Shown piece by piece: positions 1,075-22,558 of a DNA stretch of 24,705 nucleotides. A model generated the notes under the pieces. The model had not been told where the DNA came from, did no database searches, and saw only the letters and a list, made by a program, of their open reading frames with translations. Position numbers and translations under genes: made by a program. This DNA comes from Promethearchaeati archaeon (lineage in GTDB: Archaea > Asgardarchaeota > Heimdallarchaeia > JABLTI01): assembly GCA_013166835.1 (NCBI GenBank), contig JABLTI010000035.1:1-24705 (forward strand), read 5' to 3'. Each line of letters starts with the position of its first letter. The stretch's first letter is position 1.

Positions 1075-2193
1075 CTATCCAAACCATACAGGTTCCAACC
1101 AACCGTAACTCCAACCACTATAATTCGTTAAAGCTAGGATTCCCCATACTCCTAAGGCAAAAATTAATCCGAGACCAACAGACAAAGGTAACCCAGGCAT
1201 CATTTTTACTTTTTCAAGTAATTTGATTGTTAATATTGCACCAATAACTACACCAAAGAAAGCAGCTATTGCTGAATAAAGTCCAAGTCGTATAAGTGCA
1301 AAGCTAAACAACATACCATAAAAAGCTAAATCACCCAATCCTAATTCAATGTAATCCGAATAAATGTACTCTTCATCAGCTACCCGACTTGATGATTTTT
1401 CGTCAGTCATTGATTCTATTTTTTCTGTATTTATTTCTTCTTTCGCTGAATCTGAATTAATACTTCCTTCCTCTTTATTTTCCACCTGTAGTTTTTCATT
1501 TTCCTCCACATCCTGTAAGTAGCGTTCTTCACTTATTTCAGCTATTTTCTTAATTGGTCCTTTGAAGACAGAAATGACATCATAAATACTTAAACCAATC
1601 ATAACGAGTATTGCAGCAAGTGCTGGAAGAAAAACTGCAAGAAAAGTCCCAGCTAATACCGCAAAAAGCATAGCCATAATTTGTGGGGCAGGTTCAGGAA
1701 TTAATTGATAGACCATTGAAACTACTGTTAGAGCAGCATACAATAATCCAATAATAATACCTAGAACTAGGATTAAGGCATCCGTACTATTAGCAAATAC
1801 CATGTTCTCTGTGAGGACTTCATGAAGATAATAGGGAGCGGTATAAATTAGCATAAAAACAAAGAAGAATGATGTGAGAGTTACTGCAATAGCAAATAAA
1901 GCCTTTAGTAATTTGATATTTCCATATTTGAATATCAAGAAAATCACAAATGCACCAACAAATGCTATTCCTACAAAAAACAACGCAGTTAAATAAGGAC
2001 TTTCAAAAGGTGAAGCACTTGGTGTTCCTTCACCTCCTCCTACATCAGAATTGAAGAAACCAAAGAGCAAGAAACTACAAAGACCACTGAGAATTGAAAT
2101 GATCAATGTAGGAATTGCAATAGAATATATTCGTTTTTTAATCGTAATACTAAAAGTACCTAATTCACTCGCGTAACTCACTCTGTTAACCAT
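1075..2193 (-). CDS. Presenilin-family (A22) intramembrane aspartyl protease
   Basis: About 9 hydrophobic segments. TM6 YD (SIYDVISVFKGPIKKIAEISEER), TM7 GxGD (LGLGDLAFYGML), PAL-equivalent MPGLPLSVGLG, and an acidic loop between the two catalytic Asp helices. Confidence 0.93.
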   Translation of the reverse strand: MVNRVSYASELGTFSITIKKRIYSIAIPTLIISILSGLCSFLLFGFFNSDVGGGEGTPSASPFESPYLTALFFVGIAFVGAFVIFLIFKYGNIKLLKALFAIAVTLTSFFFVFMLIYTAPYYLHEVLTENMVFANSTDALILVLGIIIGLLYAALTVVSMVYQLIPEPAPQIMAMLFAVLAGTFLAVFLPALAAILVMIGLSIYDVISVFKGPIKKIAEISEERYLQDVEENEKLQVENKEEGSINSDSAKEEINTEKIESMTDEKSSSRVADEEYIYSDYIELGLGDLAFYGMLFSFALIRLGLYSAIAAFFGVVIGAILTIKLLEKVKMMPGLPLSVGLGLIFALGVWGILALTNYSGWSYGWLEPVWFG

Positions 2194-2680: not shown

Positions 2681-4957
2681 TTAAAGGATATTTTTAATTT
2701 TCAGAGCTAATTCTGGTTCAGTATTTCTTAGTAAATCAATAGCAAAAGGTGGAAATTGAGGATCAAATTCAGAGAGAATATCTCGCATCTCTTGTTTTGT
2801 AGGAGATCTATCTTCAAAAGCTTGAATTTTCTGAATGAATTTGTTAACTTGACCAAACATGTCATTTATCTTATCTCGAATGAATTTTGGTCTTTCTCTC
2901 GATCTTCTTCTCCACATTAGTCTTAAGAAACTGTGAAGATATTCCGATCTTGGACCACTATATGCACTCATAGATCGCAAATTGACTTTTGCTGCTTCTT
3001 TAAATAATTTATCAGTTCCTTCTTGAGCTCCCATGATATCGAATTGACCTATATTTATTCCAGCAAAATTTGTGGTCCAGATTTGAGCGTTTATTGCTTT
3101 ATGAGGAGCAAAAATTGAAAGAGCTTCTATAATATGGTAAACATCTAAAGGATCATCGCCAATTATGACAAGTGGTTCTCCGACAATGATTGATCTAACA
3201 GCAACATCCAATCCTTTTCTAATATAGAATCCTGCTAAATATGCACAATCTTTGTGTAATCGAATTAATTTCTCAGAGAGAGTTAGACCTGCATCTAATG
3301 CTGCTACTCCAAATGCTTTTTTCACTTCATTCAAGTATTGATCAGGCGATCTGCCTTCAATTTTTAGTGTATTAATATCACGAGCAACTTTGAGTAGAAT
3401 AGAAGTCGAATTAGTTATTTCTTTAAGAAATTCTTTTGGAGAAATAATTTTCTTTAGCTTCTTTACTAAATTTTTTGTAAATTCAGAAGAGCTTCCACCA
3501 ATTATTCGATTTTGGTCTACATCAATAATTGTAGCCCAAGAATAATACTTAAGTAAAATTTTTGGAACAACAACAATATCTGCGTCTTTAGGATGAACAA
3601 AAGATTCATTTTTTACGCAAATTAAATTTCTATGTGGAGTGATGAGGTTCAAGGTATCTAATAATTTATCAATATCTTCATCTTCAAACAGAGAAGAATT
3701 TTCACTTGTTACTACGACGAAATTCCCCATAAATAGAGCTTCAAAGACATTCTCAATGTCTCTTTTGAATAAAGTATTTAATAGAAAGGGATCACGATTA
3801 CGCTCGTTTGGGATTCTAATTTTTCCTGAAGTAAAACCTTTCTCTCGTCGAAGAGAATTTGAGGGTAGAAAACCATTTTTTGGAATGATTATAGTTTGTC
3901 TGTGAGTTTTGTCTATTTCCTGTGCAAGTGGGTCAGCTTTTAGTTTAATTCCTCTTGATTCTTTCTTAGGGATGTCAATCATTGAATCTTTTACTTCTTC
4001 AAGTCTAGGTGAAATCGATTCTGTTTCAGAAAATACGGAAACATCGCTACTTTCGTCAGAAGGTTTTGGGACACTAAAGGAACTCTCAGCACCAAGCTCA
4101 GAAAAATCTAAATCTGGTGGGGCCATCATAGCAGATTCAATTGAAGTAGAATCATCTTGTTCAGAAACATCACTTACTTTTGCTTGTGAGATAGCAGGAG
4201 CAGAGGGTTCAGTAATAGGTGGAAAACTTATTTCTTGAGTCTCTGGGCCTTCTATTTGAATGATCTCTTTATCAGCAAGTTGCGGTTCAGTCCGTCTTGA
4301 GACAATACGTGGAGCTTCATCAGATTCAAAAGGTTTTATTGAAAAATATGATTTATCCGAGATTGTTGTGATAAACAAATACCCTCTTTGGTAAATATCT
4401 CTCAATTGGTTTTCAACTTCGCTTGTTGTTAATCCAGTTACTTGAGTAACCATATCTGGTGTAACAACTTGCATTTTCACTAAAACAAGTGCTACCATCT
4501 GTAATTCTGTTGGCAAATTTAGAACTTCAAATGCATCTAAGCCCTTTCTTTCACCTTTAGCTTCGATTTTTCTTTGATCAAATGCTTTAACTAATTCAAT
4601 CAGATTTTTATCAAACACCCTAAATTGTGAAACATCTTTCCCATCATAAGAATCAGCAATTTCTGGTGGAAATATTGAGAAGAAAACATCCTCCAATTCA
4701 GGTGTGAACACAGAAGGAATACTTGTTTCTTCGAGATCAGTACCAACAACAAATAAGACTTCGTTATTTGTATGATAGTAATATTTTGTCCCTTCAATAA
4801 TTATGTCTTGAACTTTTTCAGTAAATTCACTAATTGGACCGCTCAACCAACCATAGAATTTTTCTAATCGTTCTCTTTCCTCTTGGTCAGTCATCTTTAT
4901 GAAACGCATTCCAGCAACGGGAGTATCCTTAATTACTATCCATACGAATTGAATCAT
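2681..4957 (-). CDS. Longin-like domain + winged HTH + disordered linker + two tandem DENN-like domains (ORF open to 5017; likely start ATG 4957)
   Basis: N-terminus MIQFVWIVIK...KYYYHTNNEVLFVVGTD...F..FP...DVSQFRVFDKNL fits the longin pattern. LNLPTELQMVALVL...VTGLTTSEVENQLRDIYQRGYL fits a wHTH. A S/E/P-rich linker follows, then two mutually alignable alpha/beta repeats (EALFMGNFVVVTSEN...LITPH and RSIIVGEPLVIIGDD...IFAPH). GAGG precedes ATG4957. Confidence 0.65.
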   Translation of the reverse strand: MIQFVWIVIKDTPVAGMRFIKMTDQEERERLEKFYGWLSGPISEFTEKVQDIIIEGTKYYYHTNNEVLFVVGTDLEETSIPSVFTPELEDVFFSIFPPEIADSYDGKDVSQFRVFDKNLIELVKAFDQRKIEAKGERKGLDAFEVLNLPTELQMVALVLVKMQVVTPDMVTQVTGLTTSEVENQLRDIYQRGYLFITTISDKSYFSIKPFESDEAPRIVSRRTEPQLADKEIIQIEGPETQEISFPPITEPSAPAISQAKVSDVSEQDDSTSIESAMMAPPDLDFSELGAESSFSVPKPSDESSDVSVFSETESISPRLEEVKDSMIDIPKKESRGIKLKADPLAQEIDKTHRQTIIIPKNGFLPSNSLRREKGFTSGKIRIPNERNRDPFLLNTLFKRDIENVFEALFMGNFVVVTSENSSLFEDEDIDKLLDTLNLITPHRNLICVKNESFVHPKDADIVVVPKILLKYYSWATIIDVDQNRIIGGSSSEFTKNLVKKLKKIISPKEFLKEITNSTSILLKVARDINTLKIEGRSPDQYLNEVKKAFGVAALDAGLTLSEKLIRLHKDCAYLAGFYIRKGLDVAVRSIIVGEPLVIIGDDPLDVYHIIEALSIFAPHKAINAQIWTTNFAGINIGQFDIMGAQEGTDKLFKEAAKVNLRSMSAYSGPRSEYLHSFLRLMWRRRSRERPKFIRDKINDMFGQVNKFIQKIQAFEDRSPTKQEMRDILSEFDPQFPPFAIDLLRNTEPELALKIKNIL

Positions 4958-5147
4958 TAGCCTCTTACCTTTATTTAATAGCAATCCTAATCGTTTTAGG
5001 ATGCAGTGAAACTTCAATCCTCAGATTTTTGATTTTGTTAAATGATTTTTTCTTAGTTAAGATTTGTTTACTAGGTTTTAAGTGTAGTGAAATAAGATTA
5101 AAATTTCTTCTATGGATTCTAATCACTTTCTGGGTAAAAAAAATGGA

Positions 5148-7145
5148 TTAATAGCCCCAGAACTTATTTTCTTCACTTAAGCTTCTTTTCAAATTTATAA
5201 GATCTTCTAATGCTTCTCTCTCATCGACAGTTAAATCCTCATAGAATTTCTCTTTTATCCGTCTAACAACGCCTTCTGGTAAATCAACAAATAGTTCCAT
5301 GTCTTCTGTGATTTGACGACCAACAGTAGGACCTCGAATTGAAACTGCAACTTCGGAACCTTTTTTAGCTTCACGAATAGATTGACCACTTTCTTGTATT
5401 TGTTGAATAGTTCCACATTTCTTACCATCAGTTCCTCGAATCAATGGCACTCTAGGAACAATTCGACCTGAAAGAACTTCTACACCAACTATTGCAGGTC
5501 TATTTGCGCGAAAAGTCATGCCTGGAAGAATTTTTATTTTGGCTGGATAGGTCAAATCTTTCAAGCTATCGGCTTTTAATTTGCTTTCAAGTTCTATTTT
5601 CCAGTGCGCATATTCATCCAACAAAGTGTAAATGATATCACTTTGAAAGAACTCTATGTCATTTACTTCAAGTTCTTCTTGAGCATCAGGCAAAGCTGTA
5701 ACATTAAAACCAACTATTGCTGCTAATGAGGGAGCATTTTCCTTTACGACAATTGCTTCTGAGACGTTATTCTTATTGATGTCACCGATATCAGCTAATT
5801 TAATTGGAATTTTTCTATCTCGAAATTCTTTGACGAGAGCCTCAAGAGCTCCAAGGGTGTCTGCTTTAATAATAATGCCTTCTTTATCAGTATCAATTCT
5901 AATTACTTTCAGTTCTTCTTCGATAAGTTTCTTAGCATTCGAAATTTCTTTGACAGTATTAGCAACCATTACTTGTGCTCCAGCAACAGCTTCACTCAAA
6001 CCGGAACCAGTTATTTTAACTCCTGCAGCAGCATGAACCATATCAATTGAATTAAACTTTTCACGCGGATCGCGAATTTCATCTAGCTCTTTAGGTTCGA
6101 GAAGAGCTCGTATTTTAGCTTGATGAGCTTTATCTCTACCACCAAAAACTATGGAATCAGTTTTTGAGAAGGTACCTTTGTGAACTATTACATTAATCGT
6201 AGTACCCATACCCATTTCTTCAGTTACTTCAAGAATTGTCCCTTCACCAGGACCTTCACTATACACTAATTTTTTCAAAAGAAACTGTTCTGCTAAACCA
6301 GAAAGAACAAGGAAAAGATCTTGAATACCCTCAAGAGTTTTAGCACTGGTAGGAATGATGGCAACATTCTCAGTATAATTTCTAATTCTATCATACCTAT
6401 CAGAAGGATAGCTCAACTTAGATAATTCACCCATTAACTCATACAAATGCCTGTCAAGGGCTTTTTGTGTATCTACGGTTTGCTTGCTGAAGGTTTTAGA
6501 AAAAGTTTCGTTATTATGTGATTTCCAGCCAGCAACTTTATCTGTCTTATTGGCTGCAACTAAGAAAGGTATTTTCCTTTGCTTAAGCAAACGCATTGAT
6601 TCGAAAGTTTGAGGTTGGAAACCTGCTTGCACATCCACAACAACTATAGCAATATCTGCAACAGATGCACCTCTTGTTCGTAGATTTAGAAATGCAGCAT
6701 GGCCAGGAGTGTCAACAATGAGGATACCCGGGATTCTGAGTTTAATTGAACCCTTTTTCAATAAGTCTCCACAGATTTCTTCGATAGTTTCAATAGGGAA
6801 ATAAGAAGCACCAATCTGTTGAGTTATTCCCCCTGCTTCTCGTGCTTGAACAGCAGTACCTCGAACAGCGTCTAAGATGGAGGTTTTACCATGATCAATA
6901 TGTCCCAAGATAACACAAATAGGAGCTTTGAGTCTTTTGTTTTCATCAACTTCTACTATCTCTTCTTTTTTAGGAGGTTTCTTAGTAGGTTCTTTAGTAG
7001 ATTTCACAGCAGGTTTCTTGGTAAGTTTCTTAGTAGATTTCGCAGCAGGTTTCTTGGTAAGTTTCTTAGTAGATTTCGCAGTAGGTTTCTTGGTGGATTC
7101 TTTAGTAGGCTTCTTAGTAGGTTTCTTTGTTTTTTCTTCTGACAT
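5148..7145 (-). CDS. infB: Translation initiation factor aIF5B/IF-2 with Lys-rich N-terminal extension
   Basis: GHIDHGKT, REAGGITQQIG, DTPGH, NKTD, SAKT, KADTLGALEAL and the archaeal domain IV (FR..RPAIVGVEV; GPTVGRQI). SD GGAGG upstream. Confidence 0.97.
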   Translation of the reverse strand: MSEEKTKKPTKKPTKESTKKPTAKSTKKLTKKPAAKSTKKLTKKPAVKSTKEPTKKPPKKEEIVEVDENKRLKAPICVILGHIDHGKTSILDAVRGTAVQAREAGGITQQIGASYFPIETIEEICGDLLKKGSIKLRIPGILIVDTPGHAAFLNLRTRGASVADIAIVVVDVQAGFQPQTFESMRLLKQRKIPFLVAANKTDKVAGWKSHNNETFSKTFSKQTVDTQKALDRHLYELMGELSKLSYPSDRYDRIRNYTENVAIIPTSAKTLEGIQDLFLVLSGLAEQFLLKKLVYSEGPGEGTILEVTEEMGMGTTINVIVHKGTFSKTDSIVFGGRDKAHQAKIRALLEPKELDEIRDPREKFNSIDMVHAAAGVKITGSGLSEAVAGAQVMVANTVKEISNAKKLIEEELKVIRIDTDKEGIIIKADTLGALEALVKEFRDRKIPIKLADIGDINKNNVSEAIVVKENAPSLAAIVGFNVTALPDAQEELEVNDIEFFQSDIIYTLLDEYAHWKIELESKLKADSLKDLTYPAKIKILPGMTFRANRPAIVGVEVLSGRIVPRVPLIRGTDGKKCGTIQQIQESGQSIREAKKGSEVAVSIRGPTVGRQITEDMELFVDLPEGVVRRIKEKFYEDLTVDEREALEDLINLKRSLSEENKFWGY
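6968..7135 (-). repeat. In-frame tandem repeat (12-bp subunit, 36-bp higher-order unit) encoding KKPT/KKLT/AKST units of the aIF5B N-terminus
   Basis: + strand GCAGGTTTCTTGGTAAGTTTCTTAGTAGATTTC occurs twice exactly, 36 bp apart, with degenerate copies on both sides. Confidence 0.85.
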
Positions 7146-7756: not shown

Positions 7757-8989
7757 TTAAACCCAATCACCGGTTTCAATTTTAGTGGGAAGATACTCCT
7801 CAGTGAAGAATTTAATACCACGACTTGCTAAAGCTTGTATTTCCGCTTTTTGTTTGGTATCAATCATGAGTTTTAGTTCTTTCACCCAATCAGGACGAAC
7901 TCGAACGAATCTTTCTTCCATCATCATTTTTGCTCTGGAAATATCCATTTTACTCATAGGTAAACGACAGTTCTGAGGAAGATTATACTTGTTAAGATCG
8001 GATGGACGAACACCAAGCCACTTAATATTGGGAGTAGCTAATTCATAAGATTCGTAGGATAAAGCCTTACTACCTAAGCCATACACTCTAAGTATGTCTA
8101 AGCCATACGGATCCGAATCCATGATTGCAAACACAGGTAACGAAAGGTCATGACTCATTTTTCTCAAAAAGATTCTTGTAGCAACGTTTGGCTGTCCACT
8201 ACCTGTTAGAATTATACATGGATATTTTTCATAGAATTTATCTTCTGCTAACCTTAGAAATGCTGCTTGTTTCTCTACTACCAGTATGAATTCTGCATCT
8301 GATTCTAAGTCAGTTATGTGATCTTGCATTGGATTAACGTTTTTCCCACTTGACCCTTGTTTTGTACAATCGATTAGGTCCCCGTTATCTAAATAGGATA
8401 CACGACCAACTACTAATCCTCTATCGTTTGCTGTAACATGGATGTTTTTCCGATATGTTCCAAGCAAAACAGCAGTATCTTCAATTAGTGGATCGCTCCC
8501 TCTGTTTTGATCTTCAAATAAAGCTACATCTGTATAGAAGACTTCCCTCTTACTCCCGTGAATATTTAATTCCAATAATTCATGGATAATCTGTAAAACA
8601 CGAAGTTGAGCTGTGAATTTCTTTACAGTCCCTATATCATCCCATTTTCTTTCAAGAAAATTTTCCCCAAGAAGTAGCAGATCCATTTCTTCATCATATA
8701 TTACATTGCTTCCACTTCTAGATGGGACCTTCATTATTGGAGTGCCAGTGTTAATTGTGTCAACAAAGATTTTTCTAAAAATCTCCTCTATCCTTCGCAT
8801 TCCTTCGTCTCTACTTATTTCCCTTATTTCATGAATGCCTTCTGGTAAATCATCTAACTCGTATCTTTTTGTTTTTTTGAGTATATCTCTTTCTTTTAGA
8901 ATTTCTTTTATTTTTGCTTGTGGAACTTCATTTGGGAATTTCTTCTTCTTACTCGACATTTTTTTTCCACTTCTATTCGATAGGTTCAT
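7757..8989 (-). CDS. top6A: DNA topoisomerase VI subunit A (Spo11-like); start may be ATG 8959 (MSSKKKK)
   Basis: Catalytic Tyr region KREVFYTD; TOPRIM motifs VVEKQAAF and DSDPYG; C-terminal KAEIQAL...YLPTKI. Confidence 0.96.
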   Translation of the reverse strand: MNLSNRSGKKMSSKKKKFPNEVPQAKIKEILKERDILKKTKRYELDDLPEGIHEIREISRDEGMRRIEEIFRKIFVDTINTGTPIMKVPSRSGSNVIYDEEMDLLLLGENFLERKWDDIGTVKKFTAQLRVLQIIHELLELNIHGSKREVFYTDVALFEDQNRGSDPLIEDTAVLLGTYRKNIHVTANDRGLVVGRVSYLDNGDLIDCTKQGSSGKNVNPMQDHITDLESDAEFILVVEKQAAFLRLAEDKFYEKYPCIILTGSGQPNVATRIFLRKMSHDLSLPVFAIMDSDPYGLDILRVYGLGSKALSYESYELATPNIKWLGVRPSDLNKYNLPQNCRLPMSKMDISRAKMMMEERFVRVRPDWVKELKLMIDTKQKAEIQALASRGIKFFTEEYLPTKIETGDWV

Positions 8990-9016: not shown

Positions 9017-12000
9017 TCAGGACGTTTTTCCTTCCAATTCTACAGATGTTTTGAATGATCGTAAAATATGTTTTCTAATCGCTTTTACTGTTTTTACTCC
9101 TAATCCTTTAACTGATGATGTTTTTGCGATTTTTGCATTTTGGAATTGTTTTACTGTATAAATCCCCATAGTGTTTAACTGCTTCATTATTGCTGGAGTC
9201 ACATGTGGTAACACTTCTACTGATAGCATTTTACGAAGCTCAATGATGTCTTTTTCTTCTATTCCTCTGATTTTTGATAACCGCTTAATGCTCTTCTTGA
9301 AAAGATCGCCTACTGTTTGGACGCCTAGTGCTGCGAAACGTTCTTCTGTTGTTTTCCCTAAACCTGGTAGCTTGCTTATTTTTACAGTTGGTTTCAACAA
9401 ACCTTTTGGTGGTCCTCTCACGACTTTCTCTTCTTCAGATACTTCCTTTGGTTTCTTTGTTCCCAAATATTCAGCAATTGTTGTATCCTTTGGTATTGTT
9501 GGTTTCTTTGTTTTTGCAGTGGTTGTTTTCTTTGTTGGTTTCTTACCAATCGGTTTTTTAGCGGGTGCTTTTGGTGGGGTTTTTGCTGGAGGTTTTTTAG
9601 GTTCCTTTCTTTTTGGAACAACTGTAGAACCAGGGGTCTTTAGCAGTTTTTCTTCAATATCTAACTTTAATTTAGTAATTGTTGGTGATCTTAGCCCTCG
9701 AACAGCTGTTAAACTATCATCTTCTGCTTCATAGAATTGTTTGACAGTAAAAATCCCCATTAAGTTTAGATCTCTCTTTCCTTCAAAATTAATTCTAGGA
9801 AGAACTAAAACATCTGTGTTCCCTCTATTGGTTGAGATAGTTTTTGCTCCCAATCCTTTAATCTTCAGTAATCGACTATTTGAAACCATGTAGAATTTTC
9901 CAACAGATTCAATACCTTTTGCTTCTAATCTTTCCGCCATGGTTTTTCCTACGCCTTCAAGCTCAACTACAGAAGCATCTACTACAATGAAGTCATGCGG
10001 AGGAGTTGGCATCTTAATTTCTGTTGGTTTTGGAATTACTGCTTCAGCTTCTATTGGTTCATCAACACTTACTTCAGCGGTTTCAGCTCTTAATTCTTCA
10101 ATATCCAAGTCAAGAGTGGCTCTTATGAGTTCAAATAAGGCGTTTATTCTTTCGGTGGTTAACCCGTGTATTTTAATTAATTTTGCTTCATCTGCTTCGA
10201 GGAAATCTAAAACACTGTAGATTTTTTTCTTGTGTAATTCTTCTATTGTTTTTGTGGTAACATTCGGTAAGACATTAACGTTACATTTAGATTTCAAATC
10301 AATGATTACTCCAAACGGTAAATTGCTTTGAGTTAAATCATTATTATTTGTTAAGAAGAAATCTTTTACAAATCGTACACCGCGTGTACGGAGAGATTTT
10401 TGTGTTGCAGGACCAATTCCAGGAAGTACTGAAACACTATCTATAGAATTGTAAATTTGCAAACCATCTAAAATACCACGTTCTTTAGCAAATTCATCTA
10501 ATGCTTTAGCACTAACAGATTCAACTAATTCATCTTTTGCTAATTCAGGTAATTCCAATATTGCTCGTAGAATTTGTTCTGCTTGATCAGGTGCTTCTTC
10601 GGATAAACCAAGTGAGATTAGTTCTTGTAATTGATTATCACCTATGAGAATCAAATCTTGTAAAGTTTGAATATCATAACGTTCAAGATTAACACCTTCA
10701 ATGGAATCCATAGGTAACGCTTCAACTGGGATTGGGTTCTTTGGTAAAAATAAAGAGCCTTCTCGTAATTTTAGGCAATTTGAAAATTGTGTTGAACTAA
10801 AGAGAAATTGAAAATCATCTTCATCCATTTTACCGAGCATTTGTCCAACAATAGAAGTTGTAATAGGAGCATACTTTTCAAAAATTTTCATACGCTTGGC
10901 AGCTTGCTCACGTTTCTTCAGAGCTCTTTGGAATCTCATTAATTTTCTGCCTGCTTTTTGCAGGCAAAGTCTTAGTTCTTTTCTGATTTCATCTACTTCA
11001 GCAATATATTCTTTACTTGTTTCTGGAAATGGTATTTTTGTGCTAACTAATGAAACTGCAAAAACTAAAGGATCATTATTCAAATTAGACTTATAATTCG
11101 ACCAATTAATACTTTCAATTGTTTTCTTGATGAGATCGTTTCCTTCTCCAAAAAGCAAAGGAATTCTATTTGCGAATCTTACAAGCTTGTAAGGGGGACT
11201 GTTTCCCTCTCCGCCATAACCAATGGCTACTTCTACTTGAAATGCATGACCGCTATAACTGGAAGGAGGTCTTGTTTCAGAGCAAGTAAATTCTGTTTGG
11301 TAAACATCTTGCAAACCAGCTTCCAAATTTTCATGTCCTAAGGGGGACAGGCATTTGCCATCAGGTGGGAAAAATCTAACTTTTGTGAATCCTTCATGAA
11401 TTAGCCTTCTCAATTCCATTTCATCTAATTTTTTAGGACTCTTTGAAGGAGTAATTTTTGAGATTTTCAAGACATCGGTTGCAGTTTTATCACCTATTCT
11501 TTGGAAATGCTTTTTCAGAAAATCTCTCATGTTTTTAGTATTAGTTCGAGAAATTTCGCTTTTTAATTGATTAATATCGGTACCAACAGGATGCAACGGA
11601 ACTTCTATTGGAGGTGCAGGAATAACATCTACTTTTCTAGTATGAATAATTGGTTCATCAGGATTATCAGGAGTAATAATGGAAAACGAAGCGTAAGGAG
11701 TAATTACAGCCATTTCCTCAAAATATTCGAAAACGTAACGTTTTGCTCTACTCCATGTCCCTGCAAAACAACATGATACTTCTGTTCCATGACCTTTTAA
11801 CTGATTCTTAGATTGACCAGTATATTTCTTCTCATCCACAATTTCTGGTGCATTTTTCACAATATCAATAAATAATTTGTAGTGACTTGTTGATTCAGCA
11901 GATTTCTTTTTGGATACAGCTACTCGAGATTTGATTTCAAAAGGTACTCTAATGGTAGACTGAGAGTAAATCAAAACCATTTTTGCTCCAAGACCAAAAC

Positions 12001-12373
12001 GACCTCTTGACTGCCTTTCACCATAATTCGAACCGGTTAAGACGCGCCCGAATAATTTAGGGATATCAGTATGTCGAATGCCTATACCATTATCACGAAC
12101 AGATAATCTGATGAATTCGAATGTTGCATCTTCATCAATTTGATAATCTTTTATCCCCATTAAATCGCCTATTTCTTCTGTTGGCATTAATTCTATTTTA
12201 ATTTGAATATCTGGTAGAAACCCACCTTTTTCAGCTGCATCTAAAGCGTTTTCTACAAGCTCTCTTACACTGGTATATGTTGATCTAGTAGGATTGTCAA
12301 AACCAGCTATTGCTTTGTTTGCTTCAAAGAATTCCGCAGCGGAACGCTCTATTATTTTTTCACGCGCAATCAT
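9017..12373 (-). CDS. top6B: DNA topoisomerase VI subunit B with a very long C-terminal HhH-repeat extension
   Basis: GHKL motifs RELVENALDA, DNGIGI, SRGRFGLGAK, GTEV; H2TH (FQRIGDKTA); transducer RFANRIPLLF and KIPFPETSKE. 1118 aa, roughly twice the core length. Lies directly upstream of top6A. Confidence 0.95.
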   Translation of the reverse strand: MIAREKIIERSAAEFFEANKAIAGFDNPTRSTYTSVRELVENALDAAEKGGFLPDIQIKIELMPTEEIGDLMGIKDYQIDEDATFEFIRLSVRDNGIGIRHTDIPKLFGRVLTGSNYGERQSRGRFGLGAKMVLIYSQSTIRVPFEIKSRVAVSKKKSAESTSHYKLFIDIVKNAPEIVDEKKYTGQSKNQLKGHGTEVSCCFAGTWSRAKRYVFEYFEEMAVITPYASFSIITPDNPDEPIIHTRKVDVIPAPPIEVPLHPVGTDINQLKSEISRTNTKNMRDFLKKHFQRIGDKTATDVLKISKITPSKSPKKLDEMELRRLIHEGFTKVRFFPPDGKCLSPLGHENLEAGLQDVYQTEFTCSETRPPSSYSGHAFQVEVAIGYGGEGNSPPYKLVRFANRIPLLFGEGNDLIKKTIESINWSNYKSNLNNDPLVFAVSLVSTKIPFPETSKEYIAEVDEIRKELRLCLQKAGRKLMRFQRALKKREQAAKRMKIFEKYAPITTSIVGQMLGKMDEDDFQFLFSSTQFSNCLKLREGSLFLPKNPIPVEALPMDSIEGVNLERYDIQTLQDLILIGDNQLQELISLGLSEEAPDQAEQILRAILELPELAKDELVESVSAKALDEFAKERGILDGLQIYNSIDSVSVLPGIGPATQKSLRTRGVRFVKDFFLTNNNDLTQSNLPFGVIIDLKSKCNVNVLPNVTTKTIEELHKKKIYSVLDFLEADEAKLIKIHGLTTERINALFELIRATLDLDIEELRAETAEVSVDEPIEAEAVIPKPTEIKMPTPPHDFIVVDASVVELEGVGKTMAERLEAKGIESVGKFYMVSNSRLLKIKGLGAKTISTNRGNTDVLVLPRINFEGKRDLNLMGIFTVKQFYEAEDDSLTAVRGLRSPTITKLKLDIEEKLLKTPGSTVVPKRKEPKKPPAKTPPKAPAKKPIGKKPTKKTTTAKTKKPTIPKDTTIAEYLGTKKPKEVSEEEKVVRGPPKGLLKPTVKISKLPGLGKTTEERFAALGVQTVGDLFKKSIKRLSKIRGIEEKDIIELRKMLSVEVLPHVTPAIMKQLNTMGIYTVKQFQNAKIAKTSSVKGLGVKTVKAIRKHILRSFKTSVELEGKTS
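9060..10436 (-). repeat. Three protein-level ~105-aa repeats, each with two (HhH)2 units, in the Top6B C-terminus
   Basis: Modules begin VSVLPGIGPAT (~10436), VVELEGVGKTM (~9970) and ISKLPGLGKTT (~9379). Each continues G[VI]xxV, then VLPx[VI]...[KG]I[YF][ST]Vx[DQ]FxxA...GL. Confidence 0.85.
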
Positions 12374-12606
12374 TTCTTTTACCTACTAGTCACACCTTAG
12401 TGTATGATAACTGGACTAATATATTCTATGTCCTTTTCACTTTTCTCCGAAACCTATTCACCATGCTTTTGTTCTTAGGAAATATTTTTTCTATCGTTTT
12501 AAGTTCTATTCCTTTTTTTATCATTCATTTCCTAATGGTTTCTTTAATACTTTTACTTTCTAGCAAATTAGAACATACATGCTTTTTTAATTTACGGTGT
12601 AAGACC

Positions 12607-13938
12607 TCACGGTTTTAGGATATCTGGGGTTCTTGGAAACATAATCGCTTGTCTGATGTTGTTCAAACCACATAACCACCAAACTAATCGTTCTATTCCT
12701 AAACCATAACCAGCATGAGGAGGCATACCATATTTGAAGAGATTCAAGTACCAATCATAACTCTCGAGACTAAAACCTTGATTTTTGATCACTTCAACCA
12801 TTTTATCGAATTCATGTACTCGTTGCCCTCCAGTGCAAAGTTCTGCAAAACCATCAGGAGCAACTAGATCAAAACTATTCGAGATTGTTGGGTCTTCGTC
12901 ATTAACACGATAATAAATCCCTCGAGTATGAGTAGGCCATTCTGTGATAAAGAATGGGGTTTTAAAGTGGCGAGATAAAGCAGCTTCCTCTGGAGATGTG
13001 AAATCATCTTCAAAATTCACTTTTTCTTCGAGTTCAAAACCTGTACATAATTCTTTAGCTTCTTGGAAGGGTATTCTTGGGAACCCACCTTTGAGTTTCT
13101 TTGGTTTCGCACCTAATTCAGCCAAAGGTTCTTTGGCAGTTTTTATGGTTGTATTTACAACATAAACCATCATGTCATCTAATACTTGCATAATACTAAT
13201 GTGATCATGAAAAGCAGCTTCTACTTCTATTTGCCAGAATTCTGCCACATGTTTTCGAGTTCGAGATTTTTCCATTCGAAAAGAGGGAATTATTCCGAAA
13301 ACTTTCTCATGCGCAGTTATTGCTGCTTGCTTGTAAAATTGGCCACTTTGAGCTAAAAACGCATCTTTTTCGAAGAATTTTATTGGAAACAACGTAGCTC
13401 CACCTTCTGTTGCAGTAGCGACCATTAAGGGTGAGAATAACTCAACATATTCTCTTTTAAGGAAGAATTCACGAGTTGCTTGAGCAACATGAGTTTTAAC
13501 TTCAAATGGTAATTTATTCTTCGGCATTCGAATAGTCATTTCTCGAAAAGCAAAAACTGTGCCATCATCCATTGGAGTTCGACCTGTAATATCAACTGGA
13601 ACTGGACCTTGAACTTGATTTAATACTAAGACTTCTTCCGGCAGAATTTCTATTCCACCAGGTGCTTGTTCGTTTTTCTTTATTTTACCTGTAATCCATA
13701 CTATGGTTTCATTCTTTAATCCAATGAGAGCTTCCCAAAGCTCTTCAGAAACCTTAGTTTTAATTCCTGTAACTTGTATTTTTCCACTTGAATCCCTTAC
13801 AGTAAGAAAGCAAATCTTGCCTTTATGAACTAGATGTTCAGCCCAACCACCTATAGATACTTGTGATCCATCATCTAGTTTTTTAATTTTCTTAATAGCG
13901 ATTTTCTTTGAGTAATCTACCATGTGAATTCCACTCAA
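12607..13938 (-). CDS. asnS: Class IIb asparaginyl/aspartyl-tRNA synthetase, AsnRS-like overall (start may be ATG 13923)
   Basis: OB-fold (FLTVRDSSGKIQV, APGGIEI), TEGGATLF, motif 2 PSFRMEKSRTRKHVAEFWQIEVE, DLVAPDGFAE, motif 3 PPHAGYGLGIERLVWW...FPR. Specificity is uncertain (see findings). Confidence 0.7.
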   Translation of the reverse strand: MSGIHMVDYSKKIAIKKIKKLDDGSQVSIGGWAEHLVHKGKICFLTVRDSSGKIQVTGIKTKVSEELWEALIGLKNETIVWITGKIKKNEQAPGGIEILPEEVLVLNQVQGPVPVDITGRTPMDDGTVFAFREMTIRMPKNKLPFEVKTHVAQATREFFLKREYVELFSPLMVATATEGGATLFPIKFFEKDAFLAQSGQFYKQAAITAHEKVFGIIPSFRMEKSRTRKHVAEFWQIEVEAAFHDHISIMQVLDDMMVYVVNTTIKTAKEPLAELGAKPKKLKGGFPRIPFQEAKELCTGFELEEKVNFEDDFTSPEEAALSRHFKTPFFITEWPTHTRGIYYRVNDEDPTISNSFDLVAPDGFAELCTGGQRVHEFDKMVEVIKNQGFSLESYDWYLNLFKYGMPPHAGYGLGIERLVWWLCGLNNIRQAIMFPRTPDILKP

Positions 13939-20656: not shown

Positions 20657-22558
20657 GTGATCTGTTTGATTAAAAAGAAATTATCTAAAACTTTTGTTGT
20701 TTTTATCCTGATATTTACTGCGTTTAGCTTACAAGTTATTAGTGAGAAACCGCTCCTTTCAGCTGAGGCTGAAAGTAATGACAACAACAATGAGTTATTA
20801 TCGCAAGCAAAGAATGAAAACTTAAAATTGAAACTAGAATTTATTGGTTTTAATCCAGACTTAGTTAATGAAGCGGAAATTGAGAGTGAATTATATAATC
20901 ATTTCAAACATTCCACTTCAATACCTCAAGCTGATCTTAACTTTAATTTTGAATTCAACTACGCAGATGAATCAATTAGAAAAGCATTAGAAGATTATAT
21001 GAATTTAACTGGGGTCAATGCATCCGGAGGAGGGTATGAATTAAATATCACTTTACTCTATGAAGATCTTGCTTCTGGAAATCGTTCGGACATTTTTATT
21101 CCAAGGGATGGTTTATCCATAGATGCAGATTTAGTTAATGAATACTTGTATCAGAATCTCTATCAAGAACCAGCTGCAGATGAGCCGGGTTACACATTAT
21201 ACTTAATGAATTACTCGAACTTTGATTCACCAGATCACAAAAATGAACACTGGTATGATACCAATGGTACGAGTATTGACGCTAATGAAACTGTTACATG
21301 GTGGTATTCTGGATATCGAAATCTCTCTAAAAGAGCTGCCATGGGTTGGGGTGGAAAATATCGGTTTGCTTATATTGATCTTTCTTCTCGTTCCTGGTAT
21401 CTTGATTATGTGATAAATGCATGGGGTTCCTTAGGAATTGGTTCTCCATCTTATTACGACTATCCAGACTTAGATAATCTAACACAAACTCATGATGTAA
21501 CGACACCATTAGGAAATGCGAAATTAACTGAATATTTGGCAGATTGGATTAATTCCTACATTGGGAATGTGTTCTCGGGTCCTTGTTACGACCCTCCTTT
21601 AGGAAAATCAATATCTCTTCAAGTGAAGGTACTTAACAATTTAACGGATAATGGGTATCCAGAAGAAGATTTGTTATGGTGTATTTCTAAGCATCGAATT
21701 AAGAATCAATTAGATAATGACTTCCCATGGATTGATTGGAGAATTGAAATTGAATGGGTAGAATTAACCGATGAACCAAGTCTGTTTGATTATATACAAG
21801 CAAATACTCACGAAGACATCGATGGAAAATACATAGAGGTCTCATCAGGACTCTTTTCCGTCCTACAGAATGAGCTAGACTCGCACTTTGATATGTCTGC
21901 TGCGGATGAAGTATTACCATGTTACTTTTTCCTTACAGATAATGTAGCGTTTCGATGGTATGGAACTTCTTTTGCAGGACTGGGTGGAATGGGCTGGGAA
22001 ATTCTGAAAGCATCACAATACAGTTTATTTGAAGAAGGAAATGTTTCCAAACCAATGAGAGGCATGTCAGCGGTGATGATCCATGAATTAGGGCATTCAT
22101 TAGGATTACCGCACCCCCACAGTTTTTATGGTTGGGGTTCTAGCTTCGTTGAAGAAGTCATGAGTTACTTCTCCACCACAGAAAAATTCAGCACATTTTA
22201 CAAAGATGCTGTAGGTCGAGCTCATGCAGATGCTCATTTCTTATATGGAATTGATGAGTTTGCCAATGCTTATCAGCTCTATCTAGATGCTGGGAGTCCT
22301 TCAGAATATGATGCTACTGTAGGACTTATCAATGATACATTAGATGTAGACTTTCCTCAATATTATCGTCAAATGGATTATGATTTAGCAGCAATTGCAG
22401 CTTTAACAGCTAGAGATTTAATTCAATCTTTAATAAACGATTTACAAGGAACAAGTAGTCCAGGAAATACTACACCAACTCTCGCTCTCGGATTTTTAGC
22501 TATACTGATTTTCCCTGTCATTATCTTCGTAAACAAAGCAAAACAACGAAACAGATAG
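20657..22558 (+). CDS. Secreted, C-terminally membrane-anchored metzincin-type zinc metalloprotease
   Basis: Signal peptide (KKKLSKTFVVFILIFTAF), HELGHSLGLPH (HExxHxxGxxH), Met-turn VMSY, S/T/P spacer + TM + basic tail, and many N-x-S/T sequons. Confidence 0.85.
   Translation: MICLIKKKLSKTFVVFILIFTAFSLQVISEKPLLSAEAESNDNNNELLSQAKNENLKLKLEFIGFNPDLVNEAEIESELYNHFKHSTSIPQADLNFNFEFNYADESIRKALEDYMNLTGVNASGGGYELNITLLYEDLASGNRSDIFIPRDGLSIDADLVNEYLYQNLYQEPAADEPGYTLYLMNYSNFDSPDHKNEHWYDTNGTSIDANETVTWWYSGYRNLSKRAAMGWGGKYRFAYIDLSSRSWYLDYVINAWGSLGIGSPSYYDYPDLDNLTQTHDVTTPLGNAKLTEYLADWINSYIGNVFSGPCYDPPLGKSISLQVKVLNNLTDNGYPEEDLLWCISKHRIKNQLDNDFPWIDWRIEIEWVELTDEPSLFDYIQANTHEDIDGKYIEVSSGLFSVLQNELDSHFDMSAADEVLPCYFFLTDNVAFRWYGTSFAGLGGMGWEILKASQYSLFEEGNVSKPMRGMSAVMIHELGHSLGLPHPHSFYGWGSSFVEEVMSYFSTTEKFSTFYKDAVGRAHADAHFLYGIDEFANAYQLYLDAGSPSEYDATVGLINDTLDVDFPQYYRQMDYDLAAIAALTARDLIQSLINDLQGTSSPGNTTPTLALGFLAILIFPVIIFVNKAKQRNR

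Follow-up and report, generated by a model that had tools for sequence, protein, structure and literature searches.

The gene for the B subunit of topoisomerase VI (Top6B) on a 24,705-nucleotide stretch of contig JABLTI010000035.1 (the window), from a Promethearchaeati archaeon of the Heimdallarchaeia (assembly GCA_013166835.1), codes, as read from its sequence, for a protein of twice the normal length, in which the type IIB topoisomerase B subunit is intact and has tandem (HhH)2, or double helix-hairpin-helix, units fused to its end on flexible linkers. The safest statement of the finding is that an intact topoisomerase VI (Topo VI) B subunit carries a conserved, selected and flexible arm of six (HhH)2 domains. 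In the reading favored here the protein is probably the B subunit of an active Topo VI whose flexible arm tethers the enzyme to DNA and perhaps also to the sliding clamp, where we infer the DNA binding, the tethering, the clamp docking and the effect on catalysis.

The gene occupies 9017..12373 on the minus strand as one open reading frame (ORF) of 1118 codons plus a stop codon, contains no internal stop, and is supported by the ORF list, by 29 homologous protein clusters and by contigs of two other studies that cross the junction between core and extension. The first-pass annotation had proposed a Top6B fused to an HhH array from the span 9017-10830, which corresponds to about residues 515-1118, and the fusion is confirmed by the single 1118-aa ORF, by the intact core over residues 1-518 and by Pfam and NCBIfam. 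The core (residues 1-519; 10817..12373, minus strand) comprises a GHKL ATPase, an H2TH region, a transducer and a long stalk helix, as indicated by NCBIfam, by alignment to the Saccharolobus shibatae subunit 2zbk_B and by AlphaFold2 (AF2), whose full-length model shows a confident core with the stalk helix at 461-515. Pfam places HATPase_c at 35-137 and Topo-VIb_trans at 337-493 (E 5.5e-51), and the NCBIfam top6b equivalogs span residues 3-518 (E 3.3e-148 and 6.7e-122) with scores above both curated equivalog cut-offs (NF003218, 494.5 bits against 274; TIGR01052, 407.4 bits against 380.7). The S. shibatae Top6B 2zbk_B aligns to residues 1-510 (E 4.6e-94) and the M. mazei subunit 2q2e_B also matches the core (E 8.6e-74). 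The ATP-site residues E38 and N42, the DNGIG and GRFGLGAK motifs and the lysine of 'ETSKEYIAEV' line up with 2zbk_B residues that we take to be the catalytic glutamate, the Mg-binding asparagine, the DxGxG motif, the glycine-rich lid and the transducer switch lysine. The stalk motif, whose name 'WKxY' reportedly goes back to Wendorff and Berger in 2018, reads WKRY in 2zbk_B and WSNY in the window protein, with the tryptophan and tyrosine retained, the lysine replaced by serine and the family consensus in agreement. The replacement concerns one accessory motif and gives no ground to exclude the protein from the Top6B family.

The A subunit gene top6A (410 aa; 7757..8989, minus strand) lies 27 nt downstream of top6B in the same orientation and matches the Pfam families TOP6A-Spo11_Toprim (E 1.8e-62) and TP6A_N. 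Its product matches 2zbk_A (E 3.5e-58), and the two proteins are in register at the tyrosine of 'FYTD', the glutamate of 'VVEK' and the DxD of 'DSDPYG'. The neighborhood consists of housekeeping genes, including those for an Asp/Asn-tRNA synthetase, NDK, aIF5B and ribosomal protein S2, and G+C content is uniform along top6B. A scan for bacterial-type promoters and terminators yielded 13 sites against 18.8 expected and is uninformative.

The extension comprises the 599 residues C-terminal to the core (520-1118) and consists of a neck followed by three modules joined by two linkers. In what follows, mean identity refers to the window protein against 27 homologues, net charge is given for the window protein with the mean over 28 alignment rows, and all segments lie on the minus strand. 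The neck (residues 520-644; 10442..10816), characterized by conservation, charge, low values of the predicted local distance difference test (pLDDT) and weak unit matches, is the best-conserved segment of the extension (84%), is acidic (-14; mean -16), and may include a degenerate, HhH-like stretch (558-596). Module 1 (645-757; 10103..10441; identity 69%; charge +1, mean -0.6) contains two (HhH)2 units (645-697 and 698-757) supported by HHH_5, RAD51D_N, a unit hidden Markov model (HMM), AF2 and VIA-align. It is followed by the acidic linker 1 (758-798; 9980..10102; 43%; -7, mean -9), which varies from 38 to 77 aa across the family and is placed by the alignment and by pLDDT below 50. Module 2 (799-913; 9635..9979; 81%; +3, mean +2.6) again holds two (HhH)2 units (799-853 and 854-913), with two canonical G-h-G hairpins, on the evidence of HHH_5, the unit HMM and AF2. 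Linker 2 (914-995; 9389..9634; 53%; +17, mean +14.5) is K/P-rich, basic and disordered as judged from alignment, charge and pLDDT below 50. Module 3 (996-1111; 9041..9388; 74%; +16, mean +13) is strongly basic and its two (HhH)2 units (996-1051 and 1052-1111) are supported by HHH_5, IMS_HHH_1, DUF4332, the unit HMM and AF2. The protein closes with a conserved C-terminal tail seen in the alignment (residues 1112-1118, the end of a 'FKTSAELEG'-type tail), which with the stop codon covers 9017..9040. Linker 2 and module 3 together carry a net charge of +33, only this distal part of the arm is basic, and the charge pattern along the arm is maintained over 28 homologues.

The three modules align with one another almost without gaps in MAFFT at pairwise identities of 27-35%, and a single pattern is common to the six half-modules, each a unit of ~55 residues of the form V.VLPGhG....L...GI.TV.DF......L..h.GL...TI..L. 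Comparison of module 1 with module 3 in hhalign gives a probability of 98.9% (E 2e-17, 106 columns), and the unit HMM detects six of six units in every full-length homologue, with independent E-values (i-E) in the window protein of 1e-20 and 3e-23 for module 1, 2e-22 for each unit of module 2, and 2e-23 and 2e-24 for module 3. A BLAST comparison of the arm with itself gave no off-diagonal match, because the modules are too diverged for BLAST and were resolved by MAFFT and hhalign. The proposal of three modules of two (HhH)2 units each thus holds (645-757, 799-913 and 996-1111, from alignment, hhalign and six of six units in the HMM), as does that of flexible linkers between them, where mean identity falls to 43% and 53% against 69-84% in the folded parts and pLDDT lies below 50. 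A further degenerate HhH-like unit had been proposed in the neck, and here the results are divided: the family unit HMM finds no match in the window protein, a widened HMM gives an i-E of 0.19 at 558-592 (and a value under 1 for 28 of the 30 rows of the family), which is weakly in favor, and hhalign returns a probability of 1.6% or 59.9% depending on the profile. The figure of 12 units per A2B2 is arithmetically right if the enzyme is the usual heterotetramer. Among the 12 hairpin positions, the family keeps G-h-G in five and G-h-x in three and has no such glycine pattern in four. Purifying selection acts across the arm, with pN (non-synonymous) of 0.11-0.23 against pS (synonymous) of 0.63-0.80 in the neck and modules and looser values in the linkers; the ratios are rough since synonymous sites are saturated.

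Four lines of evidence support an HhH fold for the arm modules, namely Pfam, profile searches of Protein Data Bank (PDB) sequences, AF2 and structure comparison. In the C-terminal half of the whole ORF, Pfam reports HHH_5 in four stretches (E 9.3e-25) together with IMS_HHH_1, RAD51D_N, RNA_pol_A_CTD and DUF4332. Searched piecewise, HHH_5 matches 651-790 (E 3.3e-6), 791-900 (E 1.6e-9) and, in two stretches, 991-1118 (E 5.1e-12), with additional matches of module 1 to RAD51D_N and of module 3 to IMS_HHH_1 and DUF4332; the pieces 520-650 and 901-990 have no HhH match. The neck (520-644) matches no Pfam family above its cut-off (UBA_SIK3 reaches 18.2 bits against a cut-off of 27) and has no usable match in the ESM Atlas. 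A profile of 18 units searched against PDB sequences retrieves 107 distinct chains at E<=1, and among the 60 chains listed all those recognized carry HhH domains. The best matches are the N-terminal domain of DMC1 (2.7e-5), NusA AR (1.5e-4), the Hjm helicase (2.2e-4), the Hef (HhH)2 domain (3.5e-4) and the C-terminal domain (CTD) of RNA polymerase alpha (1.8e-3), with others in REV1, Dbh, Dpo4, Rad51 and XPF; topoisomerase V (Topo V) is not among the 60 listed. With the whole arm as query, phmmer against the PDB finds the Hef (HhH)2 domain as its best match (E 0.013).

Structure prediction with AF2, run on the arm with an alignment of 27 homologues, shows three confident all-helical modules with pLDDT blocks of 76-92 (module 1, 82-90; module 2, 82-92; module 3, 76-89) and four to five short helices per unit, and the full-length model reproduces the same three modules. 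The mean pLDDT is 70.8, and the low predicted template modelling score (pTM 0.30) is expected because the arm resembles beads on a string. The linkers have pLDDT below 50 in both the arm model and the full-length model, and the neck lies mostly below 70 whether the arm is modelled alone or with the core, with 523-566 and 608-638 below 50 in the full-length model. The AlphaFold and Pfam check suggested at first pass accordingly gives HhH support from both, with modules that are confident in AF2. In Foldseek, the top three rows for the arm model are complexes of M. kandleri Topo V with DNA, which at E 9e-3 to 9e-2 (8df9_B, E 9e-3, probability 0.66) are below significance, and short local matches of high probability fall on RAD51 paralogues, RAD51 and LigA. 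VIA-align aligned 979 chains, 179 of them at Z>=5, and its top rows (Z 6.5-7.2, rmsd, or root-mean-square deviation, 1.8-2.6 A over 53-63 residues) are the N-terminal domains of RAD51D, Rad51 and RadA, the Dbh thumb, Hjm and NusA AR2; these rows all fall on units 1a and 1b, and the structural comparison covers those two units, where the alignment takes in the entire domain of the known (HhH)2 proteins. An Ig-like CTD of the M. mazei type, a beta-sandwich of ~100 residues, is excluded, as the models show helices and no strand of at least three residues.

The fusion is found well beyond the window. With residues 520-1118 as query, 29 protein clusters were retrieved from NCBI, ENA, JGI and Logan, most of them 1101-1162 aa long and with arm identities of 59-93%; where organism labels are present they read Heimdallarchaeota (seven clusters), Asgard group (two), Thorarchaeota (one) and Zixibacteria (one). 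Marine-sediment contigs from two other studies cross the core/arm junction near 10830, one over 9597-12700 and another over 10328-11915, without indels and with single-letter differences at two places only, so the concern that a misassembly or stop codon might separate the two parts at this point is answered at the level of assemblies. All 12 genomes of the window's family contain the long top6B, as frames of 1108-1155 aa in nine and of 937, 675 and 215 aa in the other three, the last at a contig end. When residues 645-1118 were searched with phmmer against 1.84 billion representatives, nine proteins matched at E<=1e-3, namely the family's own representative, six pieces (73-223 aa, 61-85% identical to it) and two HhH-array proteins without a Top6B domain; since only these nine matched, this type of arm is confined to the window's family at the sensitivity of phmmer. 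Stand-alone HhH arrays exist, as in P0037 (806 aa) and P0038 (570 aa), which have 11 and 7 tandem HhH domains like the CTD of RNA polymerase alpha and no Top6B part. One genome of another family has a second Top6B piece (G039:C200:890-2446, an 818-aa frame) that is 88% identical to the window's core and may belong to a mis-binned contig of the window's genus.

Linker 2 contains an invariant peptide, KDTTIAEYLGTKKPK (residues 962-976; 9446..9490, minus strand), that resembles a PCNA-interacting protein (PIP) box and stands out in both the alignment and the AF2 model. The pattern K-D-x-[ST]-I-A-E-[FY]-[LI]-G-T-K-K is retained in 28 of 28 rows while the rest of linker 2 is variable, and a short helix at 966-969 is the sole structure in linker 2 of the full-length model. 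Set against the canonical Q-x-x-[ILM]-x-x-[FY]-[FY], the stretch D-T-T-I-A-E-Y-L (963-970) has D in place of Q at position 1, fits at positions 4 and 7, and has L at position 8, in a disordered and basic context. The genome's own FEN1 ends in KKKQPTLDSFFSG, and its C-terminal PIP box, KKKQPTLDSFF, resembles the linker-2 peptide. On the strength of this motif likeness, the peptide may dock PCNA, whose gene is located elsewhere in the same genome (G000:C59:31065-31808). The PCNA of the window's family reaches 54% identity with PCNAs from other Asgard classes, more than the 24-38% it shares with those of its own class, and PCNA is strongly diverged in the families whose Top6B has a giant arm. The aIF5B of the window (5148-7145, minus strand) begins with ~60 K/P/T-rich, low-complexity residues (KKPTKK and STKKLTKKPA repeats) of a composition like that of linker 2, and basic K/P tails may recur among the proteins of this organism.

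Taken together, these features are consistent with a B subunit that would be made together with its A subunit and would bear an arm of an acidic neck, three beads that are each a pair of (HhH)2 units, the acidic linker 1 and the K/P-rich basic linker 2. The distal third, with the basic linker 2 and module 3 and a net charge of about +33, would be the part most likely to grip the backbone of duplex DNA without sequence preference. Such an arm could keep a normally distributive enzyme beside its G-segment and make capture of a second duplex more likely; the enzyme would then be expected to bind DNA more tightly, to tolerate more salt and to decatenate and relax DNA more processively. The PIP-like peptide of linker 2 may tie the enzyme to the sliding clamp, and either contact would raise its local concentration.

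Several results weigh against a DNA-tethering arm. Full G-h-G is absent from seven of the 12 hairpins, and since neck and linker 1 are acidic and the first two modules have almost no net charge, the greater part of the arm may make no contact with DNA; with five canonical hairpins of 12, near-neutral modules 1 and 2 and an acidic neck, only the distal third resembles a DNA binder. For the 599-residue arm model Foldseek finds no PDB match at E<=1e-3, and VIA-align no chain at Z>=8 among the 979. (HhH)2 domains also act as protein-binding modules, and one that does so, NusA AR2, ranks with the closest structural matches. The stalk lysine of WKxY is replaced in the window protein, so the core's own DNA contact may differ as well, and the PIP-like peptide departs from the canonical box in having D for Q.

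The main rival explanation is that the arm serves chiefly as a protein-docking scaffold for replisome, chromatin or segregation factors or for Top6A, with the basic thread making only weak and unspecific contact with DNA, and we regard this as possible although doubtful. That part of the arm is a protein interface is suggested by the proximal modules, which are near neutral, and by the acidic neck, which is conserved but unfolded in the models, as the most conserved segment of the extension (84%) is the one that AF2 leaves unfolded as a monomer, which is what would be expected of an interface. The seven degenerate hairpins, the likeness to NusA AR2 as a protein-binding (HhH)2 domain and the invariant short linear motif in the linker point the same way. 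However, all 28 homologues have a strongly basic linker 2 and module 3, five canonical hairpins are conserved, most of the nearest structural matches contact DNA (the Rad51 and RadA N-terminal domains, Y-polymerase thumbs, Hjm and Topo V), and there is no known partner.

The DNA-tethering reading concerns a protein that has far larger relatives. A survey of the phylum in which 400 genomes were searched with the Top6B core finds frames of 1108-1155 aa in the window's genus, 2194-4305 aa in the other six families of its class and ~500-680 aa in most of the remaining phylum. The first-pass statement that canonical Top6B has at most a small CTD therefore overlooks Top6Bs of 2200-4300 aa, with the same module, in all other families of the class. 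Six giant ORFs were verified, with top6A downstream of each wherever the contig continues, and they show summed signals of RAD51D_N, HHH_5 and RNA_pol_A_CTD. When two giants were cut into 150-aa pieces, 12 of 71 pieces matched Pfam at E<=1e-3, all to RAD51D_N or RNA_pol_A_CTD, and an iterated unit HMM finds 9-22 units per giant at i-E<0.01, spanning 23-56% of the extension.

In a tree of 22 cores all extended Top6Bs form one clade (support 100/99), in which the giants and the window's family are sister groups (99/98); outside the extended clade, the nearest branch is a 547-aa Top6B without an arm. The module-1 HMM matches the giants along almost its entire length (96-110 residues, with i-E from 2e-6 to 9e-4; for example 5e-6, 2e-6 and 3e-6), HMMs of the neck and of linker 2 find no match in them, and BLAST of the arm against six giants gives two weak matches only, so that HMMs are required. 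As the module-1 HMM matches while the neck and linker-2 HMMs and BLAST yield almost nothing, the arms are homologous in their repeat unit and otherwise very diverged. The window protein is thus a short member of an HhH-armed Top6B lineage that is present in databases, where the giants are labeled only 'Top6B', but undescribed. The two forms share the sister core, the ~105-aa double-(HhH)2 module, basic low-complexity stretches with a short hydrophobic motif and the adjacent top6A. They differ in that the giants have dozens of modules in place of three and no counterpart of the neck and linker 2, in that the motif lies at the C-terminal tail of the giants and internally in the window protein, and in that the window's host family is without gyrase and has topoisomerase IB (Topo IB) and a second Topo VI.

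Of 21 giant tails inspected, two run off their contigs and one, from family f5, is not basic. All eight f3 proteins have KQxTLx[DE][IMV] in a basic tail, and in all six f6 proteins RLRRK is followed by a terminal G[RQ][LI][DE]x[YF]M; these related motifs favor the clamp reading, while the lack of such a motif in the four complete tails of f4 and f5 counts against it. A genome labeled as outside the class contains a giant-type Top6B (G306:C205:3772-5178, locus L013) that runs 747 aa to the contig end, has HhH-like repeats and falls in the giants' clade; GyrA was not found in that genome, which is 77% complete. In two other Asgard families, Top6Bs of 651-681 aa end in acidic and then basic low-complexity tails with no HhH units (G115 and G117, loci L011 and L012), an extension of another kind.

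The topoisomerase kits of the window's family (12 genomes, 64-92% complete) and of the six remaining families in its class (71 genomes) are complementary. GyrA (PF00521) is found in none of the 12 genomes and in 69 of the 71, Topo IB (PF01028) in 11 of the 12 and in one of the 71, where the match lies at a contig start, and a second, canonical Topo VI operon in 11 of the 12, while most genomes of the other six families have a single Top6B match. The window's own genome yields no GyrB (PF00204) and holds one type IA enzyme. The window's family therefore has the extension without detectable gyrase, a counter-example to a statement of Villain et al., and the feature that accompanies gyrase in the class is arm length. 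In other families gyrA often adjoins top6B, and in the family with 2300-aa arms and a neighboring family it immediately precedes the giant top6B in the same orientation (G067:C1:4657163-4661141, G080:C296:12612-16649 and G070:C68:2023-6031). In two genomes the GyrA matches are split (profile 1-41 and 37-431) by ~1.3 kb within one 1270-aa frame (G015:C1:2232384-2235035 and G016:C1:2465029-2467680), which has the look of an intein, and several genomes of the same family are similar. The second Topo VI operon of the window's genome lies on a separate contig (G000:C172, locus L007), with a 503-aa Top6B frame at 2786-4294 and a 381-aa Top6A frame at 4298-5440, both on the plus strand. Its Top6B groups with other Asgard lineages and not with the long copy (94/91 in the core tree), and the identities of this operon across the family track those of the long gene. 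Contamination as the origin of the short paralogue is excluded by this tracking and by the presence of the operon in 11 of 12 genomes.

These kits bear on two further explanations. One is a division of labor, in which the armed Topo VI would be specialized, for example as a replication-coupled or chromosome-segregation decatenase, while the short Topo VI and Topo IB perform general relaxation. A second complete Topo VI operon whose identities follow those of the long gene, the presence of Topo IB in 11 genomes with GyrA in none, and the position of the short copy in the other half of the tree all favor it, but the housekeeping role may instead belong to the long gene, with the short one as the addition, because the long gene is orthologous to the sole Top6B match in most sister-family genomes. 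As a distinct account, such a division seems rather improbable, and it is compatible with the tethering arm and not opposed to it. The other explanation holds that the arms wrap DNA and confer directionality, as chirality selection or supercoiling, in place of gyrase in this gyrase-less family. In type IIA enzymes C-terminal DNA-wrapping domains set directionality, which offers an analogy, and in the 2zbk and 2q2e architecture the end of the Top6B transducer meets Top6A, so that the two arms would leave the enzyme near the DNA gate; the lack of GyrA in the 12 family genomes and of GyrB in the window's genome would also fit. However, the arms reach their greatest length in the families that have gyrase (69 of 71 genomes), contrary to what a replacement of gyrase would lead one to expect, and this makes a gyrase-substitute wrapping role very unlikely; furthermore, the linkers are disordered and offer no rigid wrapping surface, and Topo IB is present to relax DNA. 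An artefact, whether a misassembly or a missed stop or frameshift joining top6B to an unrelated HhH gene, can practically be dismissed, and misassembly is refuted as far as assemblies tell, in view of the junction contigs of two studies, the 29 clusters of ~1100 aa from several sources, the frames of 1108-1155 aa in nine of 12 family genomes and the purifying selection along the arm.

Among characterized Topo VI B subunits, those of S. shibatae (2zbk_B, 530 aa) and M. mazei (2q2e_B, 621 aa) align with the window protein over the GHKL, H2TH and transducer regions, with ATP and switch residues kept and top6A adjacent in the window. They differ in the 599 extra residues of the window protein, which form all-helical beads on disordered linkers, in contrast to the short helices of the S. 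shibatae subunit and the Ig-like domain described for that of M. mazei. The M. kandleri Topo V (type IC; PDB 8df9, 8df7, 2csb and 5hm5) is likewise a topoisomerase with a C-terminal array of tandem (HhH)2 domains, and its repeats have repair (lyase) activities. Its type IC core, which nicks single strands, is unrelated to the ATP-dependent strand passage of the window's type IIB enzyme, and the beads of the window protein are paired with long disordered linkers between them; the window protein is not a member of the Topo V family, though its arm may act as that of Topo V does. Single units find their best sequence and structure matches in the N-terminal domains of RadA, Rad51, DMC1 and RAD51D, the thumb of Y-family polymerases, the CTD of Hjm/Hel308, NusA AR and the CTD of RNA polymerase alpha, in all of which one or two HhH domains stand beside another catalytic core, whereas the window protein has six in tandem on a topoisomerase. 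The CTDs of GyrA and ParC and the plant proteins RHL1 and BIN4 may offer a functional analogy as extra DNA-binding or targeting elements on a type II core; their folds are unrelated, RHL1 and BIN4 are separate polypeptides, and homology is not claimed.

The first-pass annotation had regarded the architecture as uncharacterized, which holds for the HhH array, found in no paper, and fails for the presence of a CTD as such, since an unspecified C-terminal domain of Asgard Top6B already appears in the available text of PMC9348778 and PMC9665070. No paper was found that joins topoisomerase VI, Asgard and helix-hairpin-helix, and the HhH-armed Top6B is undescribed in the main texts found. The main text of PMC9348778 (Villain 2022) describes a 'globular domain' at the C-terminus of Asgard Top6B and does not contain 'hairpin' or 'HhH'; its supplement has AlphaFold models of Asgard Top6B C-termini in figures S11 and S12 that may bear on novelty. 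In the accessible text of PMC9665070 (Brinkmeier 2022), Table 1 enters a CTD for Asgard TopoVIB as well as the WKxY stalk DNA-binding motif, plant RHL1 and BIN4 are given as putative Topo VI partners, and neither 'hairpin' nor 'HhH' occurs; the same two terms are absent from the accessible text of PMC11302465, and that of PMC8185306 has nothing that bears on the subject. Polyphyletic extra copies of Top6A and Top6B in some Asgard lineages are reported in PMC12680538, Topo VI is described as a preferential decatenase in PMC8837201, and a review of archaeal PCNA partners (PMC4929162) names topoisomerase VI once and may bear on novelty.

Elsewhere in the window, 1075-2193 (minus strand) encodes a 372-aa protein with a match to the presenilin family (PF01080, E 6.8e-20), and two long ORFs, at 2681-5017 (minus strand, 778 aa) and 20657-22558 (plus strand, 633 aa), match no Pfam family at E<=1e-5.

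In archaea the principal type II topoisomerase is Topo VI, from which the Spo11 machinery that initiates meiotic recombination descends, and among known archaea the nearest relatives of eukaryotes belong to the Heimdall group. No paper was found to describe a B subunit into which an (HhH)2 arm is built, and the 1118-aa form is a far smaller construct than the 2200-4300-aa giants, expressible and assayable with and without its arm. For the organism and its relatives, a bolder and tentative extension of the tethering reading is that of a processive decatenase travelling with the replisome, in which D-x-T-I-A-E-[YF]-L would dock PCNA while the distal module grips the duplex, and in which the length of the arm may be tuned to the other topoisomerases of the lineage, with three modules in lineages that have Topo IB and a second Topo VI but no gyrase, and dozens in those that have gyrase.

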